From a virus, in the IMG/VR virus record IMGVR_UViG_3300047678_000278, positions 1 to 50,145 of that record: DNA of 50,145 bases. The stretch is one strand, 5' to 3'. Below the pieces are notes generated by a model that saw nothing but the letters and a program-made list of their open reading frames with translations, was not told the origin of the DNA and did no database searches. Positions 2,577 through 21,181 of this stretch are shown here, piece after piece. Numbering within the stretch: the stretch's first letter is position 1; each line of letters opens with the position of its first letter. Made by a program: the position numbers and the translations under genes.

Positions 2577-2596
2577 CGTAACCCCTTTTGAAGACA

Positions 2597-2690: not shown

Positions 2691-2704
2691 GATTCAGTAG
2701 CCGA

Positions 2705-3217: not shown

Positions 3218-3263
3218 GTGTTTTGCTTTCGGTTTGATTGTTGATGATAGTGAGAGGCGAGAT

Positions 3264-4985: not shown

Positions 4986-5045
4986 TCCACATCTCGTGGT
5001 GGATATTCGTATTGGCCGGTGGTTCAGTGCTCACTTTCGCCAACC

Positions 5046-5189: not shown

Positions 5190-5252
5190 TCGGTTCTCCT
5201 ACTAACCAGATGGGGCCGAGAGAACTCATTTTAAAGAATCAACGAGCGCCAT

Positions 5253-6227: not shown

Positions 6228-6234
6228 ACTCAAC

Positions 6235-6801: not shown

Positions 6802-7241
6802 TTGCGCACTCCCGGGAATGAATTGCCGATGGGGACATCGTTGAAATCGGAGAGCTGATTCCGTATCTTCTGCAACTCGGTGATGCGACGATGGAGGACT
6901 ACCGCCTCGCCTCGGATACCAGAGTCAGTGTAAGGGAACGGGTCGCTCTGCACGAAACCGTAATGGACAGGGGAGTCCTTCGGATACTTCTTCCGCTCTT
7001 TCGAGAGGGCGACTCGAATGCTGCGAGTGAATCGCTCCGCGCTGCCGGCCTCGGTAATGAGGATGACAGGGAGTTCCTGATTCTCTCTCCACAGATCCAG
7101 CAAAGAGCCGAGAGCCTGCCGAGTCGTGAATGGGTGCCGGAAGAGACTTAGGGTGCGAGGACGCATTGAACTGGATTCCTTCGGGGAAGACGTTTTTTCA
7201 CCACGGTCTTGAAATTTACCGTAATTCAAGGTTGTTGTCAA
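6798..7241 (-). CDS. Hypothetical protein (147 aa)
   Basis: Track ORF with 4-nt overlaps at both ends. Confidence 0.5.
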   Translation of the reverse strand: MTTTLNYGKFQDRGEKTSSPKESSSMRPRTLSLFRHPFTTRQALGSLLDLWRENQELPVILITEAGSAERFTRSIRVALSKERKKYPKDSPVHYGFVQSDPFPYTDSGIRGEAVVLHRRITELQKIRNQLSDFNDVPIGNSFPGVRK

Positions 7242-7528
7242 GAGTTATTTTCTGAGTCACTATTAAAGTTCAACCTGATTACATCATACATGAGAGGCGT
7301 GATGGAACGGATGAACGGGATTTGTTCGAGCTGTGAGTCATCTAACTTGGTCAACAGAATCATCTGACGACGCAAAACTTTGATGCAGGAGCCGTGGATG
7401 ATTAGAGTCGGGAAGCGCGTAGATTGGTAGAACGCGGTCTCCCACTGACGCTCATCATTCGTGAAGTTCGCATGGCTGTTGCCACAGATCGGGCACTGAA
7501 TGATGGGCATGGTGAAAAACCGAGTCAT
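7238..7528 (-). CDS. Hypothetical protein (96 aa) with a CPIC motif
   Basis: Track ORF 7238..7672 trimmed to MTRFFTMPIIQCPICGNSH, 7 nt after the stop of the HTH gene. Confidence 0.45.
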   Translation of the reverse strand: MTRFFTMPIIQCPICGNSHANFTNDERQWETAFYQSTRFPTLIIHGSCIKVLRRQMILLTKLDDSQLEQIPFIRSITPLMYDVIRLNFNSDSENNS

Positions 7529-7535
7529 TGGTAGC

Positions 7536-7808
7536 TCACCGTATCGGAGTGAGAGTGACTTCGACGCCGAGCCGTCCGAGAACCGACCATAGAGTCTTGT
7601 GACTCGGCCAGCGAGTATCGCCGGTAGCGAGGCGCTGAATCGTTGTTGGGGAAAGCTTGCAGTCCTCGGCAATAGTCTTGTAGGTGGAGCCGCAGGTGAG
7701 GAGTCGCTGGCGCACTTCGTTGATGAAGGCGTCGCGGGTGGTGAAAGAGTTCGGGCGGACGGACCGACCGGATGAGAATTGAACGATATCGGATGCTCTG
7801 CGAATCAT
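7536..7808 (-). CDS. Helix-turn-helix DNA-binding protein (XRE/Cro-like)
   Basis: Track ORF. STYKTIAEDCKLSPTTIQRLATGDTRWPSHKTLWSVL fits an HTH_XRE pattern. Confidence 0.6.
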   Translation of the reverse strand: MIRRASDIVQFSSGRSVRPNSFTTRDAFINEVRQRLLTCGSTYKTIAEDCKLSPTTIQRLATGDTRWPSHKTLWSVLGRLGVEVTLTPIR

Positions 7809-7826
7809 GGGGGTTCTCCTGTTGAA

Positions 7827-8630
7827 TTAACGCAAATACCAAGGTTTCGAGTCGCTTATCAATTCAGATTTGAAATTTTTTGTTACAACTTCTTCCGTCC
7901 TGAATTGCTGCAACTCCTCCACCGCGTCTTCCTGTTTCCTCGTATGCGCCTCTCCCCACTCCAGCCCGTATTTATCCGCGCAAATCGGACCATAGCCGTA
8001 ATAGAGAGAATCTTCAGCCGTCAACTCTCTTGCACAGAAGATGCAGTATTTGAGTCGACGGCCGTAGATCGAACCGAACTTAGAAGGGTTATCGATCAGT
8101 TCGTTGATGGCTGGAAAGAGTGGCTCTGGAATCACCAAATCACGATCATGCCGATTGATGACCCAGTAGCCTCTGGAATCCACATGCCCTAATGTCTTCC
8201 ACTCTTTCCATCCGGGGAGATTCTTCTTATCTCTCTCGATATTCACGTAGACGTTGCCGTTCTTGTGAGAGGCGAGTTGGATGGTGTGAGTCGAGTCGCC
8301 ATCAGCAAGCTCGAATTTAATTTTTGGGGTTGAGACGGATGCAGCTTTCGCTTTCTCAAACACCTTATGGATTCCCTCGAGTCGCATCGCAGTAGCGAAT
8401 GTCTGCAACTTCTCGATCGGGGTGAAGTTTGTGGCCTTGGCGTCCTCAGCCGCGAGAATCAACTTACCCACACTCTCCCATTGTTTTTCGGAAAGTCCAG
8501 TGCGAGATTGGCGAAGAAGGGAGTCAGCGAAGTTCTGCCCTGAGACACGGAGTTTGGACTTCAGCTCCTTGAGTAGATCGAGTTTGATTCGACGATCAGC
8601 AGTAATAGGGATTTTGCGCATTGAACTCAC
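7827..8630 (-). CDS. Hypothetical protein with a DUF6011-like C-terminal Cys motif
   Basis: Track ORF. CIFCARELTAEDSLYYGYGPICADKYGL resembles the C..C.R.LT...S...G.GP.CA motif seen in phage proteins. Confidence 0.5.
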   Translation of the reverse strand: MSSMRKIPITADRRIKLDLLKELKSKLRVSGQNFADSLLRQSRTGLSEKQWESVGKLILAAEDAKATNFTPIEKLQTFATAMRLEGIHKVFEKAKAASVSTPKIKFELADGDSTHTIQLASHKNGNVYVNIERDKKNLPGWKEWKTLGHVDSRGYWVINRHDRDLVIPEPLFPAINELIDNPSKFGSIYGRRLKYCIFCARELTAEDSLYYGYGPICADKYGLEWGEAHTRKQEDAVEELQQFRTEEVVTKNFKSELISDSKPWYLR

Positions 8631-8632
8631 TC

Positions 8633-10582
8633 CTAGATATACAATCTAACTCTGGTCTTCAGAGCTCCAAGCGATTCTGCCTGCAACGCCTGATACCGTT
8701 TCACTTTTTCTGCGAGATTCACGCCGAAGATCTTCTGCTTTGCGATCGCAGTCCGCATTCCAAAGTCGGTATAGAGAAGAATCACCCGCTTCTGTGCCCG
8801 CGTAATAGCGGTGTAGAGCCACTCACGACTCAACTGACCTTTTACAATATGATGAACCACGACGATCGCGGTGTCCATCTGCGAGCCTTGGCACTTGTGG
8901 CAGGTGGAAGCATACGCGAGTTGCAGCGCCCCGACTTGCGTCTTGTTGGAGAAGATACGACTTGCGCCATTCGCGAACAGCACTTCAACCCGGTGAGACG
9001 CCGGACCGCCACCTTCACGAACTTCGTCGCTTGAATCTTCACCGTCACCATTGAGGTTTTCGGAAGAGAGATTCAAGTTACCGAAATCCATCGCGGCGAA
9101 CTCAGCGAGCAATCCGGAGTTGTCGTCTTTGCCGTAAAGGATTCGTTCAGCTCTCGCCTTCTTTGCCTCCAGCACTAGATGCTCCGGGCCAACCATTGTG
9201 GCGTCACCAGACCAGGCAGGATTCCTTTCGATCTTTGTGATAACTCCGACCATGCCATTCGTAACTCGATTCTCCACATCAGGAGCTTCGTTCTTGGTGG
9301 CCATGACTCGGTGATTCACTGCGAACCGCTTAAACCCTCCGCGATCGATCTCAATCACATAGCGAGGGTGGTCAGGAGTCGGAGGCTCGATCATATTCGC
9401 GAGCGCCTCGTTGATCCACAGTTGTTGAATCGCCGAGGCTGTGTTGTTCTCGTCAAAGCCGTTGCCAGCAGTAATGATTCGATCACGATACGGATCATAG
9501 ATGAGTGGTTCAGTGGGATCGATGGAAGGGTGGACAGTGCGGGTGCGAAGTTGATTCGCTATCGCAATAATGTTCGCTCCAGCTTTCATCGGGTCGGCCG
9601 GAAGCTCGAACCCGATGACGCGCCAGTTGGGATTCGTCTTCGGATCATCAAACCACTCAGGACCGAACTTCTTCCCTTGCAGAACGGCATGGGCGGTCTC
9701 GATGATTCGATTCGCTGCCGGTTCCTTCTGCCGGTGAATTTTCGTCAACTCCGCAACCGGCCAAGCAGCGAGTGCGTGGGCAAACATCGAGTGAGAAGTG
9801 ACTGGGGGCAGCTGATTCAAGTCCCCAATGAGAATGATTGTCGTGCCACTGCGAGCCGCGTCGAGGATTTGGTGCCAGAGATCGACTCCAACCATTGACG
9901 CTTCGTCCACGATAATGATATCGTAGTCAAATTTATTCGCGGCGTGGCGAGACGGCATGAATATCTTTGTCTCTTTGAAGCTCCCATCCGGCTTGGCTAC
10001 TTCCGTAATAACTGGAGCGTATTCGAGGAGGGAGTGAATCGTTTTGCAAGCAGGATGCAGCCACTCGGGCATGTTCTGCTTGATGACTTGAGTCGCGATG
10101 CCGGTAAACGCACAGAGGGCGATTGAGAGTCCCTGTTTGCCGGTGAGCATGTTGATCTTGCGAGGAGAGATTCCAAGTTCTTCATCCCCATAAACGATTT
10201 TCTCCAAGAGATACTTGGTGACAGTCGTTTTGCCAGAACCAGCCGCGCCAATCAGGCAGCCGTATTGCTCGCTGACTAGCATGTTGATGGCGGCTTCCTG
10301 ACTCGGATCGAGCGTGATCGAAGGGTCGGAGAGACCGCAGACTTCGCGAGGAGGAATCAGCGTGGACTTCACCACTTCCTGCTTAATCGCTTTCGCTTCT
10401 TCCTTCAGCGGATCTTCGAGAGATTCAACCTCCTCGATGATCTCGGTTCCGCTGGCAAGGATTCTCTCGACGATTATATTCGCCTTCGCTTCGAGAGTGT
10501 CGGAGGGAGATTGCCGATCGAGTCGCGCCAACTGGTGCGCCTTGGCGTAGTTAACCATGAACGCAGCGGGATCAAGTGCCAT
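8633..10582 (-). CDS. SF1 DNA helicase, RecD/Dda-like
   Basis: Track ORF. Walker A GAAGSGKTT, Walker B IIIVDEASMV, ILIGDLNQLPPV, TCHKCQGSQMDTAIVV and LYTAITRAQKRVILL are present. Confidence 0.9.
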   Translation of the reverse strand: MALDPAAFMVNYAKAHQLARLDRQSPSDTLEAKANIIVERILASGTEIIEEVESLEDPLKEEAKAIKQEVVKSTLIPPREVCGLSDPSITLDPSQEAAINMLVSEQYGCLIGAAGSGKTTVTKYLLEKIVYGDEELGISPRKINMLTGKQGLSIALCAFTGIATQVIKQNMPEWLHPACKTIHSLLEYAPVITEVAKPDGSFKETKIFMPSRHAANKFDYDIIIVDEASMVGVDLWHQILDAARSGTTIILIGDLNQLPPVTSHSMFAHALAAWPVAELTKIHRQKEPAANRIIETAHAVLQGKKFGPEWFDDPKTNPNWRVIGFELPADPMKAGANIIAIANQLRTRTVHPSIDPTEPLIYDPYRDRIITAGNGFDENNTASAIQQLWINEALANMIEPPTPDHPRYVIEIDRGGFKRFAVNHRVMATKNEAPDVENRVTNGMVGVITKIERNPAWSGDATMVGPEHLVLEAKKARAERILYGKDDNSGLLAEFAAMDFGNLNLSSENLNGDGEDSSDEVREGGGPASHRVEVLFANGASRIFSNKTQVGALQLAYASTCHKCQGSQMDTAIVVVHHIVKGQLSREWLYTAITRAQKRVILLYTDFGMRTAIAKQKIFGVNLAEKVKRYQALQAESLGALKTRVRLYI

Positions 10583-10585
10583 GAC

Positions 10586-10804
10586 TTAATCTTCCTCTGT
10601 CACGTCAAAGACAATGCAGAAGTCATGCATCAATTTTGACTCTTCTCCCAGCTTATCGAGCGCGGAAACGAAAGACGAAAGCAGCATTTGTTTTCTATCA
10701 ATGTGATTCACTGCCGCGAATTTCATTATCGGCGCAGAAAGATAGCGGGTCACTTCTTCGTGGTTAGGATCAGTAACCGAATTAATGCGCACTATGATGG
10801 TCAT
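10586..10804 (-). CDS. Hypothetical protein (72 aa)
   Basis: Track ORF, tightly packed between neighbouring genes. Confidence 0.45.
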   Translation of the reverse strand: MTIIVRINSVTDPNHEEVTRYLSAPIMKFAAVNHIDRKQMLLSSFVSALDKLGEESKLMHDFCIVFDVTEED

Positions 10805-10807
10805 GAC

Positions 10808-12034
10808 TTAACCCTCCTTTTTTCCAAAGTCCGAGAACCTGGCCATCATGGCATCGAATGCAGCGGAGAGCTCAGGGCTGAGTTTAGACGGCGCTTTGGG
10901 CGTTGATTTCTTTGGGGCCTTTTTACGGCCATAGAGTATATCCAATTCTTTCGCCGCTTTTTCGCCGACGTGTTTGATTGTCTGTCCGCCGTCAAGACGG
11001 GCAGCGCGAGCATTGACTCTCTTCATCTCATCCAGCCTACGGTCGGTAAATGAGATTTTCTCAATATCAGTCGTGAGTTGATCGACTGCGACAGTGAGTC
11101 TTTGCCTTTCCAGCTTGCTAACCGAGCCCATTAGATCAGATTGAGTCAGTATCTGCTGGATATTCTGAAGCAATTGACCGGCGGTCGAAGCGGATGACAG
11201 TCGGTTCTGGAGCGTCATTGAGTAAACGCGCTCGATTAAGGTCGGCGGAGTTTTCGTGTCACCGTCCGCGATTTTCGGAATACGACGCCGCAAGACTTTC
11301 ATCGCGGCGGAAATAATCATTGCATTCCCGGAGGGAGTAGGAGAGGAAGCAGTCAATCGCCCCATGTTATCCGCTTCGAGGGAAGAGAATATTGCATGGA
11401 GTGCTAGGAAGTCAAAAGGATTTGACTTATTCTCTAGCCACGCCAGAAATTTCGGTCCGTGGCGCGTGCTATCGACTGCATTGTGGAAGGAGAAGATTGA
11501 GTCAATCCGCAGCATACACTCGAAGACAGCGGTTTCCTCGCACTCAATATCCCACCATTTTTCCGGGAGAGTGGAAAGGTGAGTTTGGAAACGAATTAGG
11601 AAATCCAGTCGTTGGCGAAGTGTGCTGAATGAGTTCTTATGCCGAGCGGGAGTTAGAGTGTCGTAGAAGAAACGACCCATGACATAGCCGAATAGCTTAT
11701 TCGTGCCGTTGAGTTCATCGGCCCGCAAAGCATTGACTAGGGTATGATAGTTGGTATGAAATCGAATTGACGGCGCTGGCCCGCTGGAAAGGATCGCGTG
11801 GCGGATAGCGAATGCATCAACCAATTCCTTCTGAGCCGCTGTCGGCATATCCTGCAAGAGAGATCGCAGACATGTATTCAATTCCTCATCTGACATAACT
11901 CCGTATGCGAAGCCAGTGAGTGAGCAGTAGATATGGTGCATCTTGGCGGCTTTGATCTCGACTATTGATTCAGCCAATACAGGCGGATCGAATACGAAGT
12001 CATTAAAGCCGGAGAGATCGAATGTTTGAGTCAT
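10808..12034 (-). CDS. Hypothetical protein (408 aa), coiled-coil and Lys-rich C-terminus
   Basis: Track ORF 10808..12118 trimmed to MTQTFDLSGF, which is preceded by GGAGCTACTCAC. It ends ...ELSAAFDAMMARFSDFGKKEG. Confidence 0.55.
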   Translation of the reverse strand: MTQTFDLSGFNDFVFDPPVLAESIVEIKAAKMHHIYCSLTGFAYGVMSDEELNTCLRSLLQDMPTAAQKELVDAFAIRHAILSSGPAPSIRFHTNYHTLVNALRADELNGTNKLFGYVMGRFFYDTLTPARHKNSFSTLRQRLDFLIRFQTHLSTLPEKWWDIECEETAVFECMLRIDSIFSFHNAVDSTRHGPKFLAWLENKSNPFDFLALHAIFSSLEADNMGRLTASSPTPSGNAMIISAAMKVLRRRIPKIADGDTKTPPTLIERVYSMTLQNRLSSASTAGQLLQNIQQILTQSDLMGSVSKLERQRLTVAVDQLTTDIEKISFTDRRLDEMKRVNARAARLDGGQTIKHVGEKAAKELDILYGRKKAPKKSTPKAPSKLSPELSAAFDAMMARFSDFGKKEG

Positions 12035-12066
12035 GTGAGTAGCTCCTAGATAGTTGAGTAAGTGGA

Positions 12067-12291
12067 TTAGGTGCGGTTGATTACGATCTCGACGTTCTGG
12101 CTGACTGCCCAACGGCATATGCGAATAAGTCGTTCGCGCCCTGAGTATTTATCGAGATCGATTTCAAATCGAAACGGCTTGTCATTGTGCTTGTATTCAA
12201 GAAAGCACCAGCCGTGTTGAGTCGGTGTTGCCACCGCTGTCTTTGTGATGAAAGAGGGAAGTTGAGCCATGATTGCACCAATTTGATTCAA
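12067..12291 (-). CDS. Hypothetical protein (74 aa)
   Basis: Track ORF with a 4-nt overlap with the upstream gene. Confidence 0.45.
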   Translation of the reverse strand: MNQIGAIMAQLPSFITKTAVATPTQHGWCFLEYKHNDKPFRFEIDLDKYSGRERLIRICRWAVSQNVEIVINRT

Positions 12292-12554
12292 GATTTCGGA
12301 ACGCTATCGATGATAGCCTGAATTTCCTTTTCGTGTCGAATGTGAGCCTCACAGAGTTCGACCATAACGCCACCGTGCAACTCAACTAGATATTGCCCGA
12401 CGTCATATTCAACCAGCGGCGAAAAAAACTCTTTTCCCTTTTCGTTGAATACAACTCCGACCGCCAATCCGCCAGCATTGCGGACGACTTCTTCTGATTT
12501 ATCAAGATCGTATTGCTCAATTTCAGCCAATGTGGCCTGTGACTTATTGCGCAT
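12288..12554 (-). CDS. Hypothetical protein (88 aa)
   Basis: Track ORF. First gene downstream of the candidate promoter at 12616-12645. Confidence 0.5.
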   Translation of the reverse strand: MRNKSQATLAEIEQYDLDKSEEVVRNAGGLAVGVVFNEKGKEFFSPLVEYDVGQYLVELHGGVMVELCEAHIRHEKEIQAIIDSVPKS

Positions 12555-12615
12555 AGCATTGACCCCGTGATTTGGGCAAGAGGGTTGAATACAAGACGTA
12601 GGTGCCCGTGAGAAA

Positions 12616-12645
12616 AGTATAACATGGCGCTAGGGAGCATGGCAA
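12616..12645 (-). promoter_or_regulatory. Sigma70-like promoter with extended -10 (leftward)
   Basis: Minus strand reads TTGCCA, then an 18-nt spacer ending TGt, then TATACT. It lies in a 160-bp gap about 60 nt upstream of ATG 12554. Confidence 0.5.
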
Positions 12646-12713
12646 ACGGAAATTTTCCAATGATATCAATGGGTTAGCGGCCTGTTGGACTCGATAGGAA
12701 AACATTCCTAGCC

Positions 12714-13652
12714 TTATTCCGAGTCTGAACCGAAGGAACCGAGATCGAATCGATTAGCCACCTCGTCGAAGCGATCGAGTTGAGATAGCAGCATCGCTTT
12801 CTTGGTCCCGGGTTTGATTCCTCTCTTATCCAGCGCCTTCTCTTCCATGCGTAACTTCGCTTTACTAATCTCTTCGAGAAGGAGCTTTGAATCTTCGTCC
12901 ATCCTGCTCGGCGACCAGTCGTGGATGGAAGAACTGAATTGTTTCGCCCATTCCTTTACACTCAGTATGGAGTGAAACCGGAATAGAACACGGCGTAAGT
13001 GCCATTGAGGGCGAAAGAAGCGGGGCCAGGGGATTCCGTATTTCGCAAGCATTTCGACTGGGAGGCGAGGAGTACAGGTGAGTCCGGTGATGTGCTGATC
13101 GATTCCGAACTGCCAGCCGTCGTCGATATCTGCCCACATAGGAGGGAGAAGAGAGCGGTCGTGGTTGGAGACTTTATGAGTCAACCATTCAGAGATCGGG
13201 ATTTGGCCGTGTTCGAGCTCTTCGATGAGATTGCCGGTGGATGAGTCAGCGATATACACTGATCCCCAAGATATGTCTCCGAGGACGGATTTTTTGTGAG
13301 CGCCAGAGGAGCGGGAGAGAGAAATCGTTGTGTCTTCTCCGTGGCGAATCTTCGGAAGGAATGGGAGAACGAAGCCGCCATCGAGGAGATCGAAGGGGAT
13401 GAAGGATGGAGGGGAGGAGCGAGTGAGTCGACGATAATACCCACTCGCAGGGCCAATGGAGAACGCGCTCGACCATGCTAGGATTGTGCTGACTCGAGGG
13501 ACGGGGATATGCGAGTCAGCAAGGAATATCTCCCCTCGATCTTGGGAAGCATCGCCTAGGAGATTATGAGCGAGGCCGGCGGAATGAATCTCTGCACTCA
13601 GCGCGCAAACGGACGCGGTGAATTGCTCAGCTGTGATGGATTGAAGGAGCAT
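12714..13652 (-). CDS. Hypothetical early protein (312 aa)
   Basis: Track ORF, no recognisable motif. Third gene of the leftward early transcript. Confidence 0.55.
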   Translation of the reverse strand: MLLQSITAEQFTASVCALSAEIHSAGLAHNLLGDASQDRGEIFLADSHIPVPRVSTILAWSSAFSIGPASGYYRRLTRSSPPSFIPFDLLDGGFVLPFLPKIRHGEDTTISLSRSSGAHKKSVLGDISWGSVYIADSSTGNLIEELEHGQIPISEWLTHKVSNHDRSLLPPMWADIDDGWQFGIDQHITGLTCTPRLPVEMLAKYGIPWPRFFRPQWHLRRVLFRFHSILSVKEWAKQFSSSIHDWSPSRMDEDSKLLLEEISKAKLRMEEKALDKRGIKPGTKKAMLLSQLDRFDEVANRFDLGSFGSDSE

Positions 13653-13667
13653 GTGAGTGAAATGGAC

Positions 13668-14417
13668 TCAGGCGAGTGACGCTTGCGCAACAAGATAGTC
13701 GTCCTTTGACCAGGTTTTGATTTCAGCGCCGTATTGGCTGTTGAGTCGATAGAGGAACTTGAGATGCCCCTGAAGGAGTTTGATGATCCAATCGTTGATT
13801 GGTCTAGAGGGGTAGAAGGGAAGGAATCGTGGAGCCTTCGTCCCCTTGCCCCAGTCATTCATCACCGTCTGCACATCGAGGCAGTAGAGATAAATGATGA
13901 AGAATCGAGCCATCCCGCTCATATCAGACATGGCTTCAGCGGGAAATCCCTCGTCCATATTGTAGATAGAGCCATCGAGTGAGTATGCCCATTCATCGGT
14001 GATATGGATGGGGTTGAATGAGACATTCACGCCGTGTGGGAGAGCGATTGAGTAGTCTTTGAGGCATTCCTCGATTCGCTGACCCAAATCCGCCGGGAGA
14101 TACGGGATGAGGGCTTGGAGGTTGTTGAGAGCCGCTTGATTCGCACTGCCCTTGGTATTGGAATGGAAGTGTAGCGCGCTCATTGCTTTGCGTGGGATGG
14201 TGAGACGAGTGTTGACGGCTGTCTCCGCACGAATCATCGCCCCACAGAACGGGACTAGAAGGAGAGTGAGTTCGAGGAATGTCTCGAGCCCTTTCTTTTG
14301 TGTAGGAGTGAGTGAGACTCGGCGGTTGTAATCTGAATCATATGCGATCACCGCTCGCTCGCCTTGTGACATGAAGATATCACCGAATGACATGTCGGCA
14401 TATGGGTTTGATGACAT
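13668..14417 (-). CDS. Hypothetical early protein (249 aa)
   Basis: Track ORF, no recognisable motif. Confidence 0.55.
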   Translation of the reverse strand: MSSNPYADMSFGDIFMSQGERAVIAYDSDYNRRVSLTPTQKKGLETFLELTLLLVPFCGAMIRAETAVNTRLTIPRKAMSALHFHSNTKGSANQAALNNLQALIPYLPADLGQRIEECLKDYSIALPHGVNVSFNPIHITDEWAYSLDGSIYNMDEGFPAEAMSDMSGMARFFIIYLYCLDVQTVMNDWGKGTKAPRFLPFYPSRPINDWIIKLLQGHLKFLYRLNSQYGAEIKTWSKDDYLVAQASLA

Positions 14418-14421
14418 GGGA

Positions 14422-15357
14422 TTATACCTCGAAGAGATTCAAGAGAGGGGTGATTGTTGGGAAACGAAGTGGGATGGTAGCTCGTACGAATGCATCCCGT
14501 TCTCGCAGAGGCTCATGGAGTCGATAGATTCTCTCAGCCTGAGCGAAGATGACTCTTTTGATTCCTGCACTTCGAGCCTCTGCATCTGCAAGGGCGTTGC
14601 TGTACCGATTCTCGATCACCGATAAATCGTAGTCGCTGATATTCGCCCTATTCTGAAGGGAGTTCTTATCCTGCGTCGCACGGAAAAGCTGTGACTCAAG
14701 TTCAGGCAACCACATGTCTTCACAAGAAACAAAGTAGCGCAAAACGAGTTGTGACATCTGAATTATGTCATACTCTAGCTCCGGACGCAAAATTGGTTTT
14801 GACCTAAATTCATCGAGCAATTTGTCTAGAATCATAAGAGCAGCCGGCTTCGTATCGAATGGGTATTGCAGCCGCATCGTATATGATTTCCACAATGTAG
14901 GTGTGATTGGAGTATCAATGCCGAACTCAGTTGTGACTCGTGAGGCCAGATATGGGAGCGATGACGAGTTCGCAGCTAACAACCCACCAAGTGGAGAGAG
15001 GGTGTATGGGTCAGTGACTCCTAGAGCAGCCAGCCGCATCACAAAGTCATATGAGTTAAGACGCCATGAGTGATTCCGCTCATATTCTGCTTCTTCTTTG
15101 ATCTCGGCTTTGATTCGATCCTTGAGTGCGTGCCGGCTATCTTTCGTAGAGGGCCACCAAGGAAGTGACTCACGTTCATTCTGCGCCAATGCGAGCGTAT
15201 CTATGAAGAACTGCCGGTGATATTTCACCATTCCCTTCTCGAAAGAGAATGCTTCTGCCGGGAGTAGATGGAGTCGATTCTTTAAGATCGCTGCTGTGAG
15301 AGCGCCTTTGAAGTTAAAGGTTAATTCGGCAGTAGTGATATACTTTGGAATCGTCAT
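14422..15357 (-). CDS. Hypothetical early protein (311 aa)
   Basis: Track ORF 14422..15393 trimmed to MTIPKYITT, which is preceded by GAGGATACG. The track's TTG/ATG starts at 15393/15390 lie at or upstream of the predicted transcription start. Confidence 0.55.
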   Translation of the reverse strand: MTIPKYITTAELTFNFKGALTAAILKNRLHLLPAEAFSFEKGMVKYHRQFFIDTLALAQNERESLPWWPSTKDSRHALKDRIKAEIKEEAEYERNHSWRLNSYDFVMRLAALGVTDPYTLSPLGGLLAANSSSLPYLASRVTTEFGIDTPITPTLWKSYTMRLQYPFDTKPAALMILDKLLDEFRSKPILRPELEYDIIQMSQLVLRYFVSCEDMWLPELESQLFRATQDKNSLQNRANISDYDLSVIENRYSNALADAEARSAGIKRVIFAQAERIYRLHEPLRERDAFVRATIPLRFPTITPLLNLFEV

Positions 15358-15392
15358 CGTATCCTCGCTGGCGGAGCACAGAACGAGCATCA

Positions 15393-15421
15393 ATAGTAGA
15401 TGAATCGCGAAAGCATGTCAA
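15393..15421 (-). promoter_or_regulatory. Sigma70-like early promoter, leftward (P_L)
   Basis: Minus strand reads TTGACA (15421-15416), a 17-nt spacer, then TACTAT (15398-15393). Confidence 0.55.
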
Positions 15422-15459
15422 GCGAAATGTGGTGAGTCGGTATAGAATTACGTTGCGGC

Positions 15460-15499
15460 TTCTATTCTACACTGAATGAGAGGAACAGCATGAATAGAA
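15460..15499. promoter_or_regulatory. Inverted pair of the 8-bp box TTCTATTC / GAATAGAA upstream of P_L
   Basis: ttctattc (15460-15467) and gaatagaa (15492-15499) are exact reverse complements. The same box recurs at 16652-16661 and 16669-16678. Confidence 0.4.
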
Positions 15500-15568
15500 A
15501 AACCTGGAGTCTGGTTGCAGGAGGCCAAAGGATTAGCATGTAATATGTGATAGTGAGTCATAGTCCCA

Positions 15569-15585
15569 GCGCCGAAGGCCCTCAC
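15569..15585 (-). repeat. GT(G/A)AGGG + GCC-TTC-GGC motif, copy 1 (inverted orientation)
   Basis: The reverse complement reads gtgagggccttcggcgc. Its upstream flank gagacgtcgcttgtgaggg matches copy 3 (gatacgtcgctcgtaaggg). Confidence 0.7.
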
Positions 15586-15594
15586 AAGCGACGT

Positions 15595-15636
15595 CTCAAC
15601 ACCTCAACACCTCAACACCTCAACACCTCACAACAC
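15595..15636. repeat. Microsatellite (CTCAACAC), 4 perfect copies plus 1 variant
   Basis: Read directly from the sequence; the tract has no G. Confidence 0.95.
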
Positions 15637-15669
15637 TCATGCCCTATCGATTCGTTGCGCTCCCTAGGA

Positions 15670-15723
15670 CATGAGTGTGATGAATGTGATGAATGTGATG
15701 AATGTGATGAATGTGATGAATGC
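15670..15723. repeat. Microsatellite (GATGAATGT), 4 perfect copies plus 2 variants
   Basis: Read directly from the sequence; C occurs only at the first and last positions. Confidence 0.95.
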
Positions 15724-15737
15724 ATAGATTATAAGAA

Positions 15738-15765
15738 CGGTTAATGTAAGGGCGACTGGCGTCGC
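15738..15765 (+). repeat. GTAAGGG + hairpin motif, copy 2 (variant stem GCGAC-TGGC-GTCGC)
   Basis: cggttaatgtaagggcgactggcgtcgc. The upstream half resembles copies 6 and 7 (cggtaaacgtaaggg). Confidence 0.65.
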
Positions 15766-15768
15766 GCT

Positions 15769-15790
15769 ATCTGAATCATATCTGAATCAC
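15769..15790. repeat. 11-bp direct repeat TATCTGAATCA, 2 copies
   Basis: Read directly. Each copy contains TGAATCA, whose reverse complement TGATTCA occurs twice at 15863-15880. Confidence 0.9.
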
Positions 15791-15837
15791 AATTATATAA
15801 TGAGGGGGACTTATGTAATGAGGGAGATACGTCGCTC

Positions 15838-15855
15838 GTAAGGGCAACTTCGTTG
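15838..15855 (+). repeat. GTAAGGG + hairpin motif, copy 3 (stem CAAC-TTC-GTTG)
   Basis: gtaagggcaacttcgttg. The stem sequence differs from other copies but the pairing and the TTC loop are kept. Confidence 0.65.
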
Positions 15856-15859
15856 TGGT

Positions 15860-15880
15860 CATTGATTCAACATTGATTCA
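15860..15880. repeat. Direct repeat CATTGATTCA, 2 copies
   Basis: Read directly. Reverse complement of the TGAATCA pair about 90 bp upstream. Confidence 0.9.
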
Positions 15881-15887
15881 CATCTGC

Positions 15888-15912
15888 GGCGCCGAAGGCG
15901 GAGCGGCCGAAG
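15888..15912 (-). repeat. Core hairpin motif, copy 4 (inverted; CGCC-GAA-GGCG on the plus strand)
   Basis: ggcgccgaaggcggagcggccgaag. The reverse complement contains gccttcggcgcc and a second cttcggc. No GTAAGGG is attached. Confidence 0.5.
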
Positions 15913-15987
15913 AAAACCATCACACTCACTACTAGATTCGTGCTATGTGCGTATTGACTCTATTAATACACCTATCATTGATCTGTC

Positions 15988-16029
15988 ATTCGTTATTCGT
16001 TATTCGTTATTCGTTATTCGTTATTCGTT
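15988..16029. repeat. Microsatellite (ATTCGTT), 6 perfect copies
   Basis: Read directly from the sequence. Confidence 0.95.
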
Positions 16030-16063
16030 ACTCATTATTCACCATTCATTATCCATTATTTAT

Positions 16064-16095
16064 CCATCATCCATCATCCATCATCCATCATCCAT
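16064..16095. repeat. Microsatellite (CCATCAT), 4.5 copies
   Basis: Read directly; G-free. It runs straight into motif copy 5. Confidence 0.95.
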
Positions 16096-16110
16096 AAGGG
16101 CCTTCGGCGT
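16095..16110 (+). repeat. (A)TAAGGG + GCC-TTC-GGC motif, copy 5
   Basis: taagggccttcggcgt. Confidence 0.65.
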
Positions 16111-16176
16111 GCTTGATAGGTTTGCTTGATATGACTCATGTAACCATTGAGCAACAATTCGTATTATACTGTGTGC

Positions 16177-16204
16177 GATGGAGAATGGAGGATGGAGAAT
16201 GGAG
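16177..16204. repeat. Microsatellite ((G/A)ATGGAG), 4 copies
   Basis: gatggag aatggag gatggag aatggag; C-free. It presents four GGA motifs. Confidence 0.95.
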
Positions 16205-16205
16205 A

Positions 16206-16230
16206 CGGTAAACGTAAGGGCCTTCGGCGC
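16206..16230 (+). repeat. 25-mer CGGTAAACGTAAGGGCCTTCGGCGC, copy 6
   Basis: Identical to 16458-16482. Confidence 0.95.
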
Positions 16231-16233
16231 ATT

Positions 16234-16275
16234 GGTGTTGGTGTTGGTGTTGGTGTTGGTGTTGGTGTTGGTGTT
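16234..16275. repeat. Microsatellite (GGTGTT), 7 perfect copies
   Basis: Read directly; contains only G and T. Reverse complement AACACC is embedded in each unit of the CTCAACAC array. Confidence 0.95.
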
Positions 16276-16458
16276 GTTGTTCGTTGACTCGATATCATTC
16301 ATTGACTCGATGCTATCCATTAGCTTGACATTGCCTATTAGCTCAATGGCTCACTGGCTCACTGGCTCAATACTATTCAATGGCTCGATATTATTCATTG
16401 ACTTGACACTATTCACTGGCTCAATGTTATTCATTAGCTCAATATTGTTCATTGGCTC
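16276..16458. repeat. Degenerate 18-bp tandem array (about 9 units, consensus near TATTATTCATTGGCTCAA) with an inserted TGGCTCA(C/A) triplet; iteron-like
   Basis: My hand segmentation gives units ending in ...gactcga, ...gactcga, ...agcttga, ...agctcaa, three tggctca(c/a), then ...ggctcga, ...gacttga, ...ggctcaa, ...agctcaa, ...ggctcgg. Confidence 0.8.
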
Positions 16459-16482
16459 GGTAAACGTAAGGGCCTTCGGCGC
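16458..16482 (+). repeat. 25-mer CGGTAAACGTAAGGGCCTTCGGCGC, copy 7
   Basis: Identical to 16206-16230. Confidence 0.95.
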
Positions 16483-16615
16483 TTCCATTCCCACTCCCCC
16501 TTCACCCCTCCCAATAGTGAATCAATGATGCTGAATCAAGGGCTAAAGTGTGGGTGAGAATGGGATAAAACCGAGAGATATAACACTGATCCATGAGATG
16601 CTTACCTTTAAGAGG

Positions 16616-16680
16616 GGTATTATTTTTTCTATTATATTTATTCTTTCATAGAAGAATAGAAGAACATAAAGAATAGAAAT
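16616..16680. other. AT-rich block with an inverted repeat and GAATAGAA direct repeats (candidate DNA-unwinding element)
   Basis: tattctt (16639-16645) pairs with aagaata (16652-16658). aagaatagaa occurs at 16652-16661 and 16669-16678. This is the most AT-rich stretch I saw in the window. Confidence 0.35.
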
Positions 16681-16953
16681 CCTAAGACCCCCCTAGGAGA
16701 ACCTTTTCACACTCGCACTCATTATATCTCTCTTTTCCTGCCCCACAATTTGACTCATTCCCACCTCACCACGGTGATTCCCAGGGCACACCTACGGAAG
16801 GTGCTACCTACGCCACAACGGTTGACTCTCCGCCCCCCTCCGCCCCTCCTTCCCTCCTCAACCGCTAAAATTTGACTCAACCTCCCCTCACCCGCCCCCA
16901 ACCCATTGATTTTTCAGCAAAAAAAATATCTCGACTCGACCCCCTATCTCACC

Positions 16954-16982
16954 TTTACATCCGTCCCCCAAAAGCGTACACT
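16954..16982 (+). promoter_or_regulatory. Sigma70-like early promoter, rightward (P_R)
   Basis: TTTACA (16954-16959), a 17-nt spacer, then TACACT (16977-16982). It lies about 70 nt upstream of ATG 17054. Confidence 0.45.
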
Positions 16983-17013
16983 TTCCCCAGTCCGCTGCAT
17001 TCAGCACCGGACG

Positions 17014-17040
17014 AAACCAAACCAAACCAAACCAAACCAA
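17014..17040 (+). repeat. (AAACC), 5 copies, in the predicted 5' leader just before the SD of gene 17054
   Basis: gaaaccaaaccaaaccaaaccaaaccaaGGAActcaacaccATG. Confidence 0.9.
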
Positions 17041-17053
17041 GGAACTCAACACC

Positions 17054-17908
17054 ATGTCTACTCTCAACGTAATCACTGACGAAAAATCCATCGAGCGAGT
17101 TAAGAAGGCTGCAACCGGCGGAACCATGCGGAAAGTCTATTCCACTATGGAAGCGGCAATCGCCGCCATGCAGTCCCTCGCTCCTATCGCCGCCGAACTC
17201 AAAATCGCCATCAAGACGGCCGATCCAGAGACCTTTGCAGCCGAAGGAATGCAGCCGGTAATCGCCATCGTCGGCGCTCGCAAAGAAGAAACCGGCGCAG
17301 ACGGCAAGAAGCGCGGAGTCGTCGGCATTAAGGGGGTTGCATTCTTCCCAATCCCCACCCTCGACACATTCCTTTCCGACGAGCAGGGGCGTGACTGGCT
17401 CGTTAAGATCGCCGAGAAAGAAGCCGCACACGTTATCTTCCGTCCACTCCGCTCCGCTGAAAGCCTCGAAGAACTCGATACAGCAGCACTCCCGTCGAGT
17501 GTCGCCGCAATCGTCATGTCGAGCCGCGCCGACGCACTCGATACTGACTGGCTCGATGCAGTCTGGCCGATGGCTCGTGAGGGACTCAAGCTCAAAGCCC
17601 CAAAGCTTTACGAAGCTCTGCCGAAGCAGAAAGCGGAACTCGTGAAGTGCCTGCGCTCGAAGTCCTACGCCGAGGGCGCATACTCAGTCCTAGAGGGAGC
17701 CAACGCATTCACCGGCGCGCTGGCAGCATTCCTTATGAAGGCCGGAGAACTCAACAAGGCGGAAGACGGCACGTCCGACCCGATCGATACCAGCGAACTC
17801 ACTCGCTGGCTTGACGCTCGTGACGAGACCAATCTCGCCATTCCGAAGCCCGCTGACTACTCGGCAATCGCTGGGCAGGACTTTAGCAAGATCGATATCG
17901 GCTTCTAG
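17054..17908 (+). CDS. Hypothetical protein (284 aa), first rightward gene
   Basis: Track ORF with AAGGAA SD. Ala/Glu-rich, ends ...DFSKIDIGF. No motif recognised. Confidence 0.65.
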   Translation: MSTLNVITDEKSIERVKKAATGGTMRKVYSTMEAAIAAMQSLAPIAAELKIAIKTADPETFAAEGMQPVIAIVGARKEETGADGKKRGVVGIKGVAFFPIPTLDTFLSDEQGRDWLVKIAEKEAAHVIFRPLRSAESLEELDTAALPSSVAAIVMSSRADALDTDWLDAVWPMAREGLKLKAPKLYEALPKQKAELVKCLRSKSYAEGAYSVLEGANAFTGALAAFLMKAGELNKAEDGTSDPIDTSELTRWLDARDETNLAIPKPADYSAIAGQDFSKIDIGF

Positions 17909-17929
17909 CCGATCTGCACTCACAACGGT

Positions 17930-17961
17930 TTGGTGCGTCTCAGCCCATCGCGGCGCACCAA
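17930..17961 (+). other. Intercistronic hairpin
   Basis: ttggtgcg (17930-17937) pairs with cgcaccaa (17954-17961), with a 16-nt loop and no T-tract. Confidence 0.35.
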
Positions 17962-18008
17962 CTCTCCCACTCAATCACAACCCGAATTACCTCACAGGAG
18001 TCACTCAA

Positions 18009-18329
18009 ATGGCCAAAATCAACCGCGCTCACTCGCAGACCGGCATTCGCACGGCTGGAATCCCCGGCTTCACTCTCACTATGGAAATCGTCTCGACAAT
18101 CATTCGCGAAGTCGAGCATGATCCGCACGGCGAGAAATTTCAGACTATCGGGCAGCACATTGACGCAATGATCGCGGAAGCCCTCTCACGCAAAGACCGT
18201 CCGAGTAACATCGCAATCGATCTCACCGACATGGCCGAGCTTCTAATCCCCGACCATCGCGGCTTTCAGTCCCTCAACCCACACGGCGACCACTTCGCTA
18301 ACGCCGAGCCGTTCAAAGTCACTCGCTAA
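18009..18329 (+). CDS. Hypothetical protein (106 aa)
   Basis: Track ORF 17811..18329 trimmed to MAKINRAHSQ, which is preceded by CAGGAG at 9 nt. Confidence 0.55.
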   Translation: MAKINRAHSQTGIRTAGIPGFTLTMEIVSTIIREVEHDPHGEKFQTIGQHIDAMIAEALSRKDRPSNIAIDLTDMAELLIPDHRGFQSLNPHGDHFANAEPFKVTR

Positions 18330-18335
18330 TCTACC

Positions 18336-18373
18336 GAGCCGCGCGAGTTACCAAGCCCGCGCGGCTCTTTATT
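18336..18373 (+). terminator. Rho-independent terminator
   Basis: gagccgcgcg (18336-18345) pairs with cgcgcggctc (18358-18367), with a 12-nt loop, followed by TTTATT. Confidence 0.75.
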
Positions 18374-18839
18374 CTGATATATATCTAATTTGATTCAAAA
18401 ATTTTTCCCTACGCTTCGCTTCGGGAAGGAAGAATTGAGCGGAGTCTGCGACGCATTCTCCTCTCGGGCTCGATCCTCGCTAACGCTCGGCGCCCTTCGG
18501 GTTGACTCGTTACACTCGGCCTCCGGCAGGGAGGAAGCTCGCTTCGCTCGACATATTGTGAAGGATTCGCTTCGCTCATGGACAGCGCTGTATCTCCACC
18601 ATGCCTATTATTACCTACACTCCCACTCTACACTACCCACACTCAACCACCACGCACCAACACGAGCGCATTCGATTCATACACTACCACTCACCTTGAC
18701 AGGGGCGGCAGGGGTAACTGGGACTCCTGAATCTTGTGGAGGGGGGCATATCCCCCCAGTGTACTCACGACCCGGCCCCGTTAATATGGGCCCCATGGCT
18801 CCGTAAGACTGCTTAGATCTCGCACCACGGTGAATCAAA

Positions 18840-19622
18840 ATGACAGATATGTTTGAGAAGGAGGGGGCGAAAAAAAATTTGCGAGGAGTCTTTGACGATA
18901 TTGATTTGAGTCAATGGGAGAATCCTGCCGTGGGAGCGGAGAAGGAGAAGGTGGAGGTGGAGGTGGAGAAGGTGATTGCGACTCCGTTGATTCCTGCTGC
19001 CCCGAAGGTGAAGCTGTCGGATATTGCGCGGTTGATTCTGAATGCTGATTCAAACGCGCCGGCTGGGAACGCGGAGGGGTTGAATGCCTCCCGTCAGGTT
19101 TTGGCTGATCGACTCGGCTGCACTGTGGCTGATATTAAGGAGGTCGCGGATAGCTACGGAGTCGATGCCTGGACCGCCCTTGTTTCGGAGGAGCGGGTGA
19201 AGCGGAGTCTTTCGATTGCGGCTGAACGCGATATCAGCTGGGATCGGCTCGAGAGTGTGGTGCTCAGGAAGTTGTTGAATCTGGTTGAGAACGATCGCGT
19301 GCAGACGGTGTCGGAGTTGGCCGCACTCAGCAAGCTGGCGAATCAAGCGACTCGTAGCCCGGATCGTAAAAGGGTTGGCGGTGGCGCGGACCAGCCGGGA
19401 GTTGGGTTGCAGGTGAATCAGCAATTCAACAATTATCTTCCTGGGAGCCCGGAGCACGGGGTTCTTCCTTCAGGGCATCTTGGCCGAATGACTCTTTCCC
19501 TCACCCACCGGATTCACAAGCAGATCGAAGGCGACGTGGTGAAGGGTGCGAGGGATTTGGATTCGCTGGAGATGCTGAGCCTGAAGGATATCCAGGAAGC
19601 AGAGAAGGCGTATGGGACGTGA
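18840..19622 (+). CDS. Putative small terminase subunit (assigned by position)
   Basis: Track ORF. It lies immediately upstream of TerL and overlaps it as GTGA. No diagnostic motif, so the call rests on position only. Confidence 0.4.
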   Translation: MTDMFEKEGAKKNLRGVFDDIDLSQWENPAVGAEKEKVEVEVEKVIATPLIPAAPKVKLSDIARLILNADSNAPAGNAEGLNASRQVLADRLGCTVADIKEVADSYGVDAWTALVSEERVKRSLSIAAERDISWDRLESVVLRKLLNLVENDRVQTVSELAALSKLANQATRSPDRKRVGGGADQPGVGLQVNQQFNNYLPGSPEHGVLPSGHLGRMTLSLTHRIHKQIEGDVVKGARDLDSLEMLSLKDIQEAEKAYGT

Positions 19623-21181
19623 GTCAGACCTCTCCATTCGTTAGGGTTGAGTTCGATCGTGCTGAGTTAAAGCAAGCGATTGCTCGTGACTGCATCACAG
19701 CTTTGACGTTTTATCTTGGGGAGGAGTTGACTCTCGAGGTCCCCGCATTCCATGAAGAGATATGGGGTGAGTTGGTGCGGTATCTTGATCGAGTCAGTGA
19801 GCCTGAGTTTCTTGTGGGGCATTTGCAGAAATTATTTGCGGTTCCGAGAGAGCATTCGAAATCAACTCTCGCGAAAGTCGCGGTTATCATATTCATGCGG
19901 TATTCCCCGCTTTCATTCACACTTTACATCTCCCGGACCTCTGGTATCGCTTTGAATGCTATCAAGGATGTTGTTGCATTCATGAAATCTGAGAATGAGG
20001 TTGAGTTGTATGGGCAGCCGACTGTCATTAAGGCGAATGAAACTGATTCCCTCTACATAGTCTCCATCTGGAGAGCGGATGGGACTCGAAAGACGGTGAT
20101 TCTGAAGGCAGTCGGTGCTCAGCATCAGGTTCGTGGACTCCTGATCGAAAACAAACGCCCCGATTTCGTGGTATTTGACGACGTGGAGGACTATGAGACA
20201 GCGGATGGGGGAGTCCAGCAAAAGAAACTCGACGAATGGGTGATGGGCACCGTCATGAAAGCTACGGCGAGGCGGAGTTTCCGACTCATGCTGGGCAATA
20301 TGGTCCGGAATACCACGCTTCTTGCGAGATTGAGTAAAGATGCAGACTGGAACCCGACTGTGTTTGGTGCGTTGGTCCGGGATAAAGTGACTGGGGCGCT
20401 TCAAGCCCTCTGGGAGGGCCGCTGGACCGTTGAATCCTTGATGGAGGACTATCGGAAGTATCGGAAGTTAGGCCTCGGTCATATCTGGGAGACGGAGATG
20501 ATGAATCTCTCCAAAGATGTGTTGTTCACAGCGGACCTGAGTGCTATGCCGATGCTTGAGTATGTCTCTCCGGATGACGTAGAAGCTGGGTTTCTGTGTC
20601 TCGACCCCGCATTCGGACAGAATGCGTGGAATGACGAGTCAGCCATCACTGTCCACGTCCGAGTGAAGGACTACCCCATCCCAGTTATTGTGGCTCACCG
20701 CGTAGGTCGATTCACCGAGAACCAGATCCTCGACAATATGGTCGAGTTGAGCTATTATTGGAATCTGACCTCCTGGGCCGTCGAGTCTCAGGCGGCGCAG
20801 CGGCTTCTGATCCCGTTGTTCCGCCTCCTTTTGTTGGATCGGAAGGTGAATCCCGACGTGTTCCTCATGCTGCCTGTCTTTACCGGGCAGAACACGAAAT
20901 CATCGCGCATTATCGCCTTCAGGACTTCTTGCGGTGCCGGTTCATACGCGATGACAGAGGATCAGGTGGATATTCGACTCAAACTCGAAGACTACTCCCC
21001 GGATACAAAGGATCATGACGATTTGTGCGACTCGGCTGCATTCGGTCCGATTGTTTGGAGTGCTTTCGGGGAATCGATTCAGTCTCAAGGGCGTGCTGAT
21101 ATCGCAGGTGCGTTGTTGCAACAAGATTCAAACTTATTCGGCAGAAGAACTGTAGGAGAGCTCGATGCATGTGCGCACTAA
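19619..21181 (+). CDS. terL: Terminase large subunit
   Basis: Track ORF with a GTG start. P-loop-like VPREHSKST, Walker B DFVVFDDVED and nuclease-domain CLDPAFGQ...DESAITV are present. Confidence 0.85.
   Translation: MSQTSPFVRVEFDRAELKQAIARDCITALTFYLGEELTLEVPAFHEEIWGELVRYLDRVSEPEFLVGHLQKLFAVPREHSKSTLAKVAVIIFMRYSPLSFTLYISRTSGIALNAIKDVVAFMKSENEVELYGQPTVIKANETDSLYIVSIWRADGTRKTVILKAVGAQHQVRGLLIENKRPDFVVFDDVEDYETADGGVQQKKLDEWVMGTVMKATARRSFRLMLGNMVRNTTLLARLSKDADWNPTVFGALVRDKVTGALQALWEGRWTVESLMEDYRKYRKLGLGHIWETEMMNLSKDVLFTADLSAMPMLEYVSPDDVEAGFLCLDPAFGQNAWNDESAITVHVRVKDYPIPVIVAHRVGRFTENQILDNMVELSYYWNLTSWAVESQAAQRLLIPLFRLLLLDRKVNPDVFLMLPVFTGQNTKSSRIIAFRTSCGAGSYAMTEDQVDIRLKLEDYSPDTKDHDDLCDSAAFGPIVWSAFGESIQSQGRADIAGALLQQDSNLFGRRTVGELDACAH

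Follow-up and report, generated by a model that had tools for sequence, protein, structure and literature searches.

GATC repeats are clustered in Escherichia coli oriC and in P1 oriR, GANTC sites are found in the Caulobacter origin Cori, and the iterons of the P4 ori are read by a primase-helicase. Ribbon-helix-helix (RHH) repressors, e.g. omega, MetJ, and Arc, and XRE/Cro proteins use operators built of 7-8 bp units; in promoter regions these units are repeated directly or inverted, at intervals of about one turn of the helix. In a classical helix-turn-helix (HTH) dimer, the half-sites are about 10 bp apart. The packaging site pac of P1, a 161-bp site inside pacA, harbors seven TGATCA/G hexamers with Dam GATC, arranged 4+3 around the cut, and its cleavage is controlled by methylation (PMC10028697). 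The present analysis concerns the palindromic heptamer TGAnTCA, which embeds the methylation motif GANTC, in a viral DNA of 50,145 nucleotides (IMG/VR virus record IMGVR_UViG_3300047678_000278; the whole stretch is denoted as the window). In kind, its sites are akin to repeat elements already known to carry methylation sites, e.g. P1 pac and the GATC clusters of origins.

The heptamers show a local flank enrichment that is conserved in the clade, positional conservation of one site, and a 2+2 cluster. They are probably functional, conserved candidate binding sites bearing a methylation motif; the operator interpretation of the original prediction is partly supported, and its XRE-like reader is an unsupported candidate. 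Tentatively, the sites are read here as possible recognition sites of a protein that controls genome termini or packaging, perhaps gated by methylation; this analogy is ranked first, with low confidence, above operators, a by-product of GANTC selection, and a replication origin.

Distribution of TGAnTCA sites in the window

Replication genes occupy the minus strand at 1-15393 and 45713-50145 (Dda-like helicase, PD-(D/E)XK nuclease, DUF3987 primase/helicase-type protein, and the family A DNA polymerase PolA), and structural genes the plus strand at 17054-45557. Because both groups meet at 15394-17053, this interval is regarded as a divergent control region. Twelve exact heptamers had been listed in the original prediction for this and a second large non-coding region; all were recovered, and no further copy exists between 15394 and 18839. 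The regions, neighboring genes, and sites are:

15394..17053, divergent non-coding region with 21 GANTC and 10 TGANTCA sites (open reading frame (ORF) map and codon-score gene model)
15554..15560, heptamer TGAGTCA, 7 nt from the GC hairpin element 15568-15585 (repeat D8)
15772..15880, 2+2 heptamer cluster, densest in the genome: TGAATCA pair 15772/15783 and TGATTCA pair 15863/15874
16132..16138, heptamer TGACTCA, 21 nt after the hairpin element 16094-16110
16518..16538, TGAATCA pair (16518/16532), 14 nt apart, 35 nt after the hairpin element 16465-16482 (repeats I5, I9)
16747..16770, plus strand, repeat D9 copy 1: AATTTGACTCA plus a C-rich tail, with heptamer 16751
16869..16892, plus strand, repeat D9 copy 2, with heptamer 16873
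17054..17908, plus strand, gene A, 284 amino acids, GANTC-poor, no heptamer in the window
18330..18839, second non-coding region with 8 GANTC sites and 2 heptamers
18336..18375, plus strand, intrinsic terminator made of a perfect 10-bp GC stem with TTTATTCT downstream of it
18391..18397, heptamer in the invariant 11-mer TTTGATTCAAA, directly after the terminator
18831..18837, heptamer TGAATCA, starting 9 nt before the ATG at 18840
18840..19622, plus strand, terS-like gene (putative small terminase gene), 260 amino acids, heptamers at 18907, 19046, 19414, and 19620, highest GANTC density of any gene

The four heptamers inside the terS-like gene were overlooked in the original prediction. As described there, the pairs of the 15772-15880 cluster are direct repeats and mutually reverse complementary; each pair is in an 11-nt register, and the two are inverted to each other about a 73-bp core containing TTATATAAT.

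In the divergent region, T precedes GANTC at 17/21 sites, exactly as claimed, and ten of the 21 have both the 5' T and the 3' A. Heptamers constitute 48% of the GANTC sites in this region vs 5% in the coding DNA of the window, i.e. the excess persists once the abundance of GANTC is accounted for. Two earlier figures needed correction: the chance expectation of 0.4 heptamers was too low, since GANTC itself is enriched throughout the window, and T precedes 24-28% of the coding GANTC sites, not about one in six. Local dinucleotide shuffles yield 0.84 heptamers in the divergent region vs 10 observed (0 of 2000 shuffles reach 10) and 0.09 in the second non-coding region vs 2 observed (0.4% of shuffles reach 2). 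If the 21 GANTC sites are taken as given and T is assigned with the frequency that it has locally before other GA dinucleotides (0.39), about 3.1 heptamers are expected vs 10 observed (P=5e-4). The excess is real but about 3-fold over this fair local null, not 30-fold, and moderate for the window alone.

Genome-wide, 49 heptamers were counted vs about 52 expected from 683 GANTC sites and the flank frequencies (27% T, 28% A). The zone 15394-19626 without gene A contains 17 heptamers among 48 GANTC sites vs about 33 among 631 elsewhere, and the structural arm of the window has 11 vs about 20 predicted by flank frequencies. What is enriched is a zone that begins with the divergent region and includes the terS-like gene, and not non-coding DNA in general.

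Conservation in related phages

Hundreds of related capsid and terminase proteins are present in public assemblies, many of them on 47-52 kb contigs. Relatives were compared through their terminase neighborhoods, i.e. as partial genomes (loci L001-L025 and L086-L098, plus L168 and L169; L170 is Caulobacter phage Kuura). The closest ones found are L168, with gene A 73% identical, and L169, and about a dozen distant relatives with protein identities of 25-60% carry the pattern. The two large non-coding gaps are common to relatives with at least 37% terminase identity, and 12 relatives have a large equivalent of the divergent region.

In the relatives' divergent regions, heptamers make up 55/261 GANTC sites (21%) vs 267/2874 (9%) in confident coding DNA (p=5e-8), and T precedes GANTC with a frequency of 0.42 vs 0.29 before other GA dinucleotides (odds ratio (OR) 1.7, p=3e-7). 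The commonest words across these regions are TGAATCAA and TGACTCAA, i.e. TTGAnTCA. Homologs of the terS-like gene from ten genomes show the same tendency, with 34/174 heptamers per GANTC site (19.5%) vs 195/2569 (7.6%) in other coding DNA (p=1e-6) and an OR of 2.1 against the local TGA background (p=7e-8); some of these heptamers share alignment columns or a position near the start codon. When the densest 170-bp cluster is located in every partial genome, 7/13 fall in the divergent region and three more around the terS-like gene or the start of the large terminase gene (TerL). The layout of the window cluster (15772-15880, 109 bp) is found again in L094, with 2+2 heptamers in 170 bp; other relatives have 2-3 sites and no fixed layout. 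A search for 11-mers shared between the window's non-coding DNA and relatives was dominated by chance matches and proved unusable.

Conservation of individual positions, proposed earlier as a check, was found in part. The 11-mer TTTGATTCAAA around 18391 is unchanged in the window, L168, and L169, while the aligned flanking sequence has diverged; spacing and number of the sites vary among relatives. In addition, gene A is preceded by heptamers at a distance of 8-32 nt from its start in L169, L004, L094, and L092, and a heptamer at most 20 nt from the terS-like start codon is found, as in the window, in L002, L016, L004, and L168.

A candidate zone for termini recognition and packaging control

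In the proposed mechanism, TGAnTCA would be a flank-extended GANTC that is kept dense throughout one zone, which comprises the divergent region, the non-coding DNA of 18330-18839, and the terS-like gene. The sites would act in cis and be recognized by a sequence-specific DNA-binding protein, putatively the terS-like product. They may be methylated, and binding or cutting could depend on whether the GANTC within them carries the methyl group. Their job would be the recognition of genome termini or of a packaging-initiation region in a P1 pac-like manner, with the genome ends presumably lying within the zone.

As in P1 pac, short palindromes consisting of an adenine-methylation site flanked by T and A occur repeatedly, and the 2+2 cluster of the window, with 109 bp, resembles in miniature the two groups of P1 (4+3 in 161 bp). 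Both would be associated with the region of a small-terminase gene, provided that the terS-like gene is one, and in both the methylation state offers a built-in possible switch. They differ in that the window heptamer is built around GANTC, the P1 hexamer around GATC; in that the window sites extend over about 4 kb, with the tight cluster 3 kb upstream of the terS-like gene; and in that site number and spacing are not conserved among relatives of the window phage.

A cultured phage with the same divergent architecture is Kuura, which has an exact 606-bp direct terminal repeat (L170 1-606 = 43208-43813) in the equivalent divergent region between its early genes and terS and holds 5/45 of its GANTC sites in the terS gene. 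The enriched zone matches the location of genome ends and packaging genes in phages of this kind. By analogy, this repeat suggests where the genome ends of the window phage may lie. The window itself is identical at 1-127 and 50019-50145, and because of this 127-nt overlap at both contig ends it is regarded as complete, with a genome of 50,018 bp that was assembled as a circle; the PolA gene runs unbroken over the contig junction (2-793 and 48700-50142 form one gene). The overlap fits either a permuted genome or one with terminal repeats.

Several observations weigh against a packaging role. When tandem duplicates are collapsed to about 6/16 independent units, the excess in the window alone falls to P=0.025, and some 33 further heptamers lie elsewhere in the genome. 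The sites of the window are scattered over 4 kb instead of being confined to about 160 bp, and their number and spacing vary across the relatives. The two flanks occur almost independently of each other (frequencies of 0.44 for T, 0.44 for A, and 0.23 for both vs 0.19 expected), and 346 aligned TGANTC half-sites give no consensus past TGAnTCa and no shared wider context. Kuura has fixed terminal repeats, not P1-like headful packaging. The assignment of 18840..19622 as a small terminase gene draws on its position and a weak HTH-like resemblance, so that it is not demonstrably terS; its product has no Pfam, PHROG, or PDB match, and its profile no credible PDB match. No methyltransferase was found among the approximately 55 ORFs of the phage with Pfam or PHROGs. 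Finally, several sites adjoin promoters, a terminator, or start codons, which fits transcriptional control equally.

Such control would be exerted if the sites were operators for a phage or host regulator of the early and late operons, e.g. an RHH protein reading 7-bp units or an HTH protein, an alternative that is considered doubtful. Both intergenic control regions contain such sites; a promoter-like ATTACA-16-TATAAT on the minus strand (15819..15792), with the pair 15772/15783 immediately downstream, would read through both copies; the invariant 18391 is situated between the terminator and the late operon; and heptamers precede the gene A start in four relatives and lie near the terS-like start in five genomes. 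The 11-nt register places the pair members on one helix face, and the first early gene of L092, next to its divergent region, encodes a small DNA-binding-like protein. The enrichment, however, runs on through a coding gene, the terS-like one; the distance of the sites from the two credible sigma-70 promoters (15421..15393 and 16954..16982), neither of which contains a heptamer, is not constant; and no candidate regulator is conserved beside the region, the first leftward genes not being common to the relatives. Moreover, the flanks are not jointly constrained.

The original prediction had interpreted the palindrome as the operator of a dimeric protein. Of this claim, the non-coding enrichment beyond GANTC, the recurrence in the clade, and one invariant site hold; the near-independent flanks, the variable spacing, and the lack of a shared context in the alignment speak against it. 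Because the flanks are almost independent, the data document a half-site preference T-GANTC on each strand and are no proof of a symmetric dimer operator. Nor does an operator model predict that the enrichment continues into the coding terS-like ORF.

As reader, an XRE-like protein had been put forward:

7536..7808, minus strand, XRE-like HTH ORF (HTH_3 E=4e-4, 20.8 bits vs cut-off 23)

It is a plausible small HTH protein by sequence, but it is encoded 7.6 kb from the sites, scores below the Pfam threshold, and nothing links it to them. An XRE/Cro-type operator was rejected: the half-sites of TGAnTCA are 4 bp apart, whereas XRE dimers normally need about 10 bp, only the pair 15772/15783 adjoins a promoter-like site, and the HTH gene is not adjacent. 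The heptamers resemble RHH and XRE operators as short units in direct or inverted arrays with about one-turn spacing; no RHH gene was identified in the window. The AP-1/GCN4 bZIP site TGA(C/G)TCA is identical for N = C or G, but belongs to a eukaryotic family, and N is any base here; the resemblance is regarded as coincidental.

Enrichment of GANTC across the genome

The window contains 683 GANTC sites (about 13.6/kb), whereas base composition predicts 192 and shuffling of dinucleotides leaves 360. Among the 16 palindromic XYNY'X' pentamers, GANTC is the only strongly enriched one (3.55-fold; runner-up 1.57-fold). Coding DNA has 587 sites vs 279±12 after synonymous codon shuffling, with an excess in all three frames, and the density is equal in non-coding and coding DNA. 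The spacing is more even than random (coefficient of variation 0.47-0.76), with gaps below 30 nt at half of the expected number. All relatives with at least 37% terminase identity are GANTC-rich (14-20/kb), and the clade reaches 3.5-5.5 times the expectation. In terminase relatives further away, the motif is strongly depleted, with as few as 1-2 sites in 10-20 kb, and distant relatives together with cultured Caulobacter and Roseobacter phages range from 0.02 to 0.5 times the expectation. Among cultured phages, those of alphaproteobacterial hosts are poor in the motif (Kuura 0.31-fold, CRP-810 0.47-fold), and the betaproteobacterial phage Tiera is neutral (1.14-fold). No description of GANTC-enriched phages was found in the literature searched. 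This clade-wide, evenly spaced hyper-enrichment is more remarkable than the heptamer itself.

Against this background, the heptamer could lack a function of its own and be a by-product of a genome-wide GANTC selector, a methyltransferase or another reader, that mildly prefers a 5' T. The preference would become visible where coding constraint is weak, and tandem duplication and TGA-rich repeats would inflate the count in the window. In line with this, the genome-wide number of heptamers equals the expectation from GANTC count and flank frequencies, the flanks are nearly independent, 8/12 sites fall inside duplicated units, and T before GA is already frequent locally (0.39). The equal GANTC density in non-coding and coding DNA and one relative, L014, with a raised heptamer share even in coding DNA (17%), point the same way. 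The explanation is nevertheless held to be rather unlikely, as the enrichment in relatives survives the local TGA control, heptamers are frequent in one coding gene, the terS-like one, and rare in its neighbor gene A (5/169 across relatives), the structural arm remains below expectation, and one site is invariant in three genomes with diverged flanks.

The heptamer clusters may also be the high-affinity end of whatever reads GANTC. That they are high-affinity entry points of a chromosome-wide GANTC-reading system is unlikely, and two roles are conceivable for such a system, in which an array of one site per 50-75 bp is maintained while related phages of alphaproteobacterial hosts purge the motif. 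It could mark phage DNA as self, either via methylation by the host enzyme CcrM or via a phage protein that could spread from the TGAnTCA clusters near the termini and packaging genes. Alternatively, the dense array could titrate the host's cell-cycle methyltransferase and thereby stall the host.

Promoters, repeats and origin-like features of the divergent region

Further elements of the divergent region are:

15393..15421, minus strand, leftward sigma-70-like promoter TTGACA-17-TACTAT with GATTC in the spacer, upstream of the first early gene (probable ATG at 15357)
16619..16680, AT-rich tract, 83% A+T over 60 bp, within the feature 16619..16698
16698..16680, minus strand, terminator-like hairpin after the AT-rich tract
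16954..16982, plus strand, rightward sigma-70-like promoter of gene A, TTTACA-17-TACACT; its conserved counterpart in L168 reads TTTACA-17-CATACT

Short tandem repeats constitute 34% of the region. About a dozen distinct arrays with units of 5-18 nt, e.g. CTCAACAC, ATGAATGTG, ATTCGTT, ATCCATC, and TTGGTG, were noted at 15568-16482. Among them are about seven copies of an element composed of GTRAGGGC and a small GC hairpin; four copies have a heptamer or heptamer pair at a distance of 5-7 nt. The exact pattern of this hairpin element was not found in IMG/VR, and the arrays were rejected as a clade feature, being largely specific to the window genome.

Promoter elements were considered as well, with TTGAnTC serving as a sigma-70 -35 box or as a methylation-dependent motif of the GcrA/CcrM type. 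Seven TTGACTC sites in the window resemble TTGACA, and TTGAnTCA 8-mers are the most recurrent ones in the relatives' divergent regions. However, none of the seven has a -10 element at 16-18 nt, and none was found at this distance from repeat D9 copy 1. Likewise, no excess of TANNNT exists at the right offset downstream of 346 TGANTC or 129 TTGANTC half-sites of the clade, and the -35 assignment was rejected. GcrA prefers a 5' pyrimidine, as in TGATTCG and more broadly YGAKTCK (PMC7987155). The heptamers share with the GcrA/CcrM promoters of Alphaproteobacteria the GANTC core, the preferred 5' pyrimidine, and the location in intergenic control DNA; they differ in the 3' flank, which is A, not G/T, and no association with -35/-10 elements was found. 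As only 3/29 non-coding sites fit YGAKTCK vs 179/683 (26%) genome-wide, this motif was rejected too, and ORF scans with Pfam or PHROGs detected no GcrA homolog in the window. Promoter elements are therefore a largely refuted and very improbable explanation.

The L092 protein mentioned above is encoded at 4806-5177 on the minus strand. Its 123 amino acids comprise a weak GcrA-N-like domain (PF07750, E=2e-4, below cut-off) and an RHH-like tail. The domain hints at an alphaproteobacterial host; no homolog of the protein was found in the window.

A replication origin, with clustered methylation sites or iterons beside an AT-rich element for unwinding, is improbable. The AT-rich tract 16619-16680 is located between the pair 16518/16532 and the repeats at 16751 and 16873, and the likeness to origin clusters would lie in repeated methyltransferase targets beside such a tract in a large non-coding region. 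The only reversal of an otherwise uniformly positive GC skew falls at 16-19 kb, and the phage encodes its DUF3987 primase/helicase-type protein and its own polymerase. Unlike in known origin clusters, scans of the region for DnaA (up to 1 mismatch) and for the CtrA consensus gave no boxes; the negative skew coincides with C-rich repeats; no site arrangement about the tract is conserved in relatives; and an origin leaves unexplained why the enrichment reaches into the coding terS-like gene. Scanning with the IHF consensus gave nothing but one IHF-like match at 16899, the tRNA scan of the region no tRNA genes, and the Rfam scan of 15200-19000 two sub-threshold matches to snoRNA models only (E=0.3-0.9).

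Gene content and relatives of the phage

The phage is podovirus-like with an SU10-type major capsid protein, which shares only about 27% identity with its counterparts in cultured phages, among them the Pseudomonas PaP2/119X group, EBPR podovirus 3, Caulobacter phage Kuura, and Polaromonas phage Tiera. No near-identical DNA was found in phage GenBank records and no match to the flanking proteins in IMG/VR. Scanning genome contigs for a host recovered only a mis-binned copy of a related contig in a metagenome-assembled genome.

Gene A is conserved at the head of the rightward operon in every GANTC-rich relative. Its AlphaFold model has a predicted local distance difference test (pLDDT) score of 80 and no fold match in PDB or BFVD; no family match was obtained either. 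The gene is one of three GANTC-poor islands noted in the window (10808-12118 with 4.6/kb, 12288-12554 with 0/kb, and 17054-17908 with 2.3/kb). Because its homologs in relatives have 10-20 GANTC/kb, the allele was probably imported recently from a phage without GANTC enrichment. The terminator 18336..18375 closes the operon formed by gene A and a small gene (18009-18329) and is conserved in L168 and L169. Downstream follow:

18697-18790, element conserved ahead of the terS-like gene and consisting of TTGAC-N19-21-GGGACTCCT, a G/C hairpin, and a further hairpin that displays TTAATATG
19619..21181, plus strand, large terminase (phrog_38, E=3e-38)

Counterparts of the 18697-18790 element are found in L168 (1647-1715), L169 (2221-2289), and L004 (3636-3705), with an invariant G5-6/C5-6 hairpin. 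A role as a structured leader RNA, as an unusual promoter, or in packaging, as a signal, is conceivable for this element; covariation was assessed over four sequences and is not decisive. The terS-like protein aligns weakly with the putative terS of phage Tiera (hhalign E=0.055), and its single-sequence structure model is unusable (pLDDT 45).

Significance

If TGAnTCA sites were methylation-gated packaging or control signals, they would be for GANTC, the CcrM-type motif, what P1 pac and oriC are for Dam methylation, in a group of uncultured, widespread podophages of soil and freshwater with genomes of 47-52 kb. The larger puzzle is why a methylation motif is 4-5 fold more frequent, and regularly spaced, in an entire clade of phages, while the relatives of this clade avoid the motif. 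The heptamer clusters are the obvious place to seek the protein that reads GANTC, and self-marking or methyltransferase titration, if true, would represent a new viral use of an epigenetic motif.

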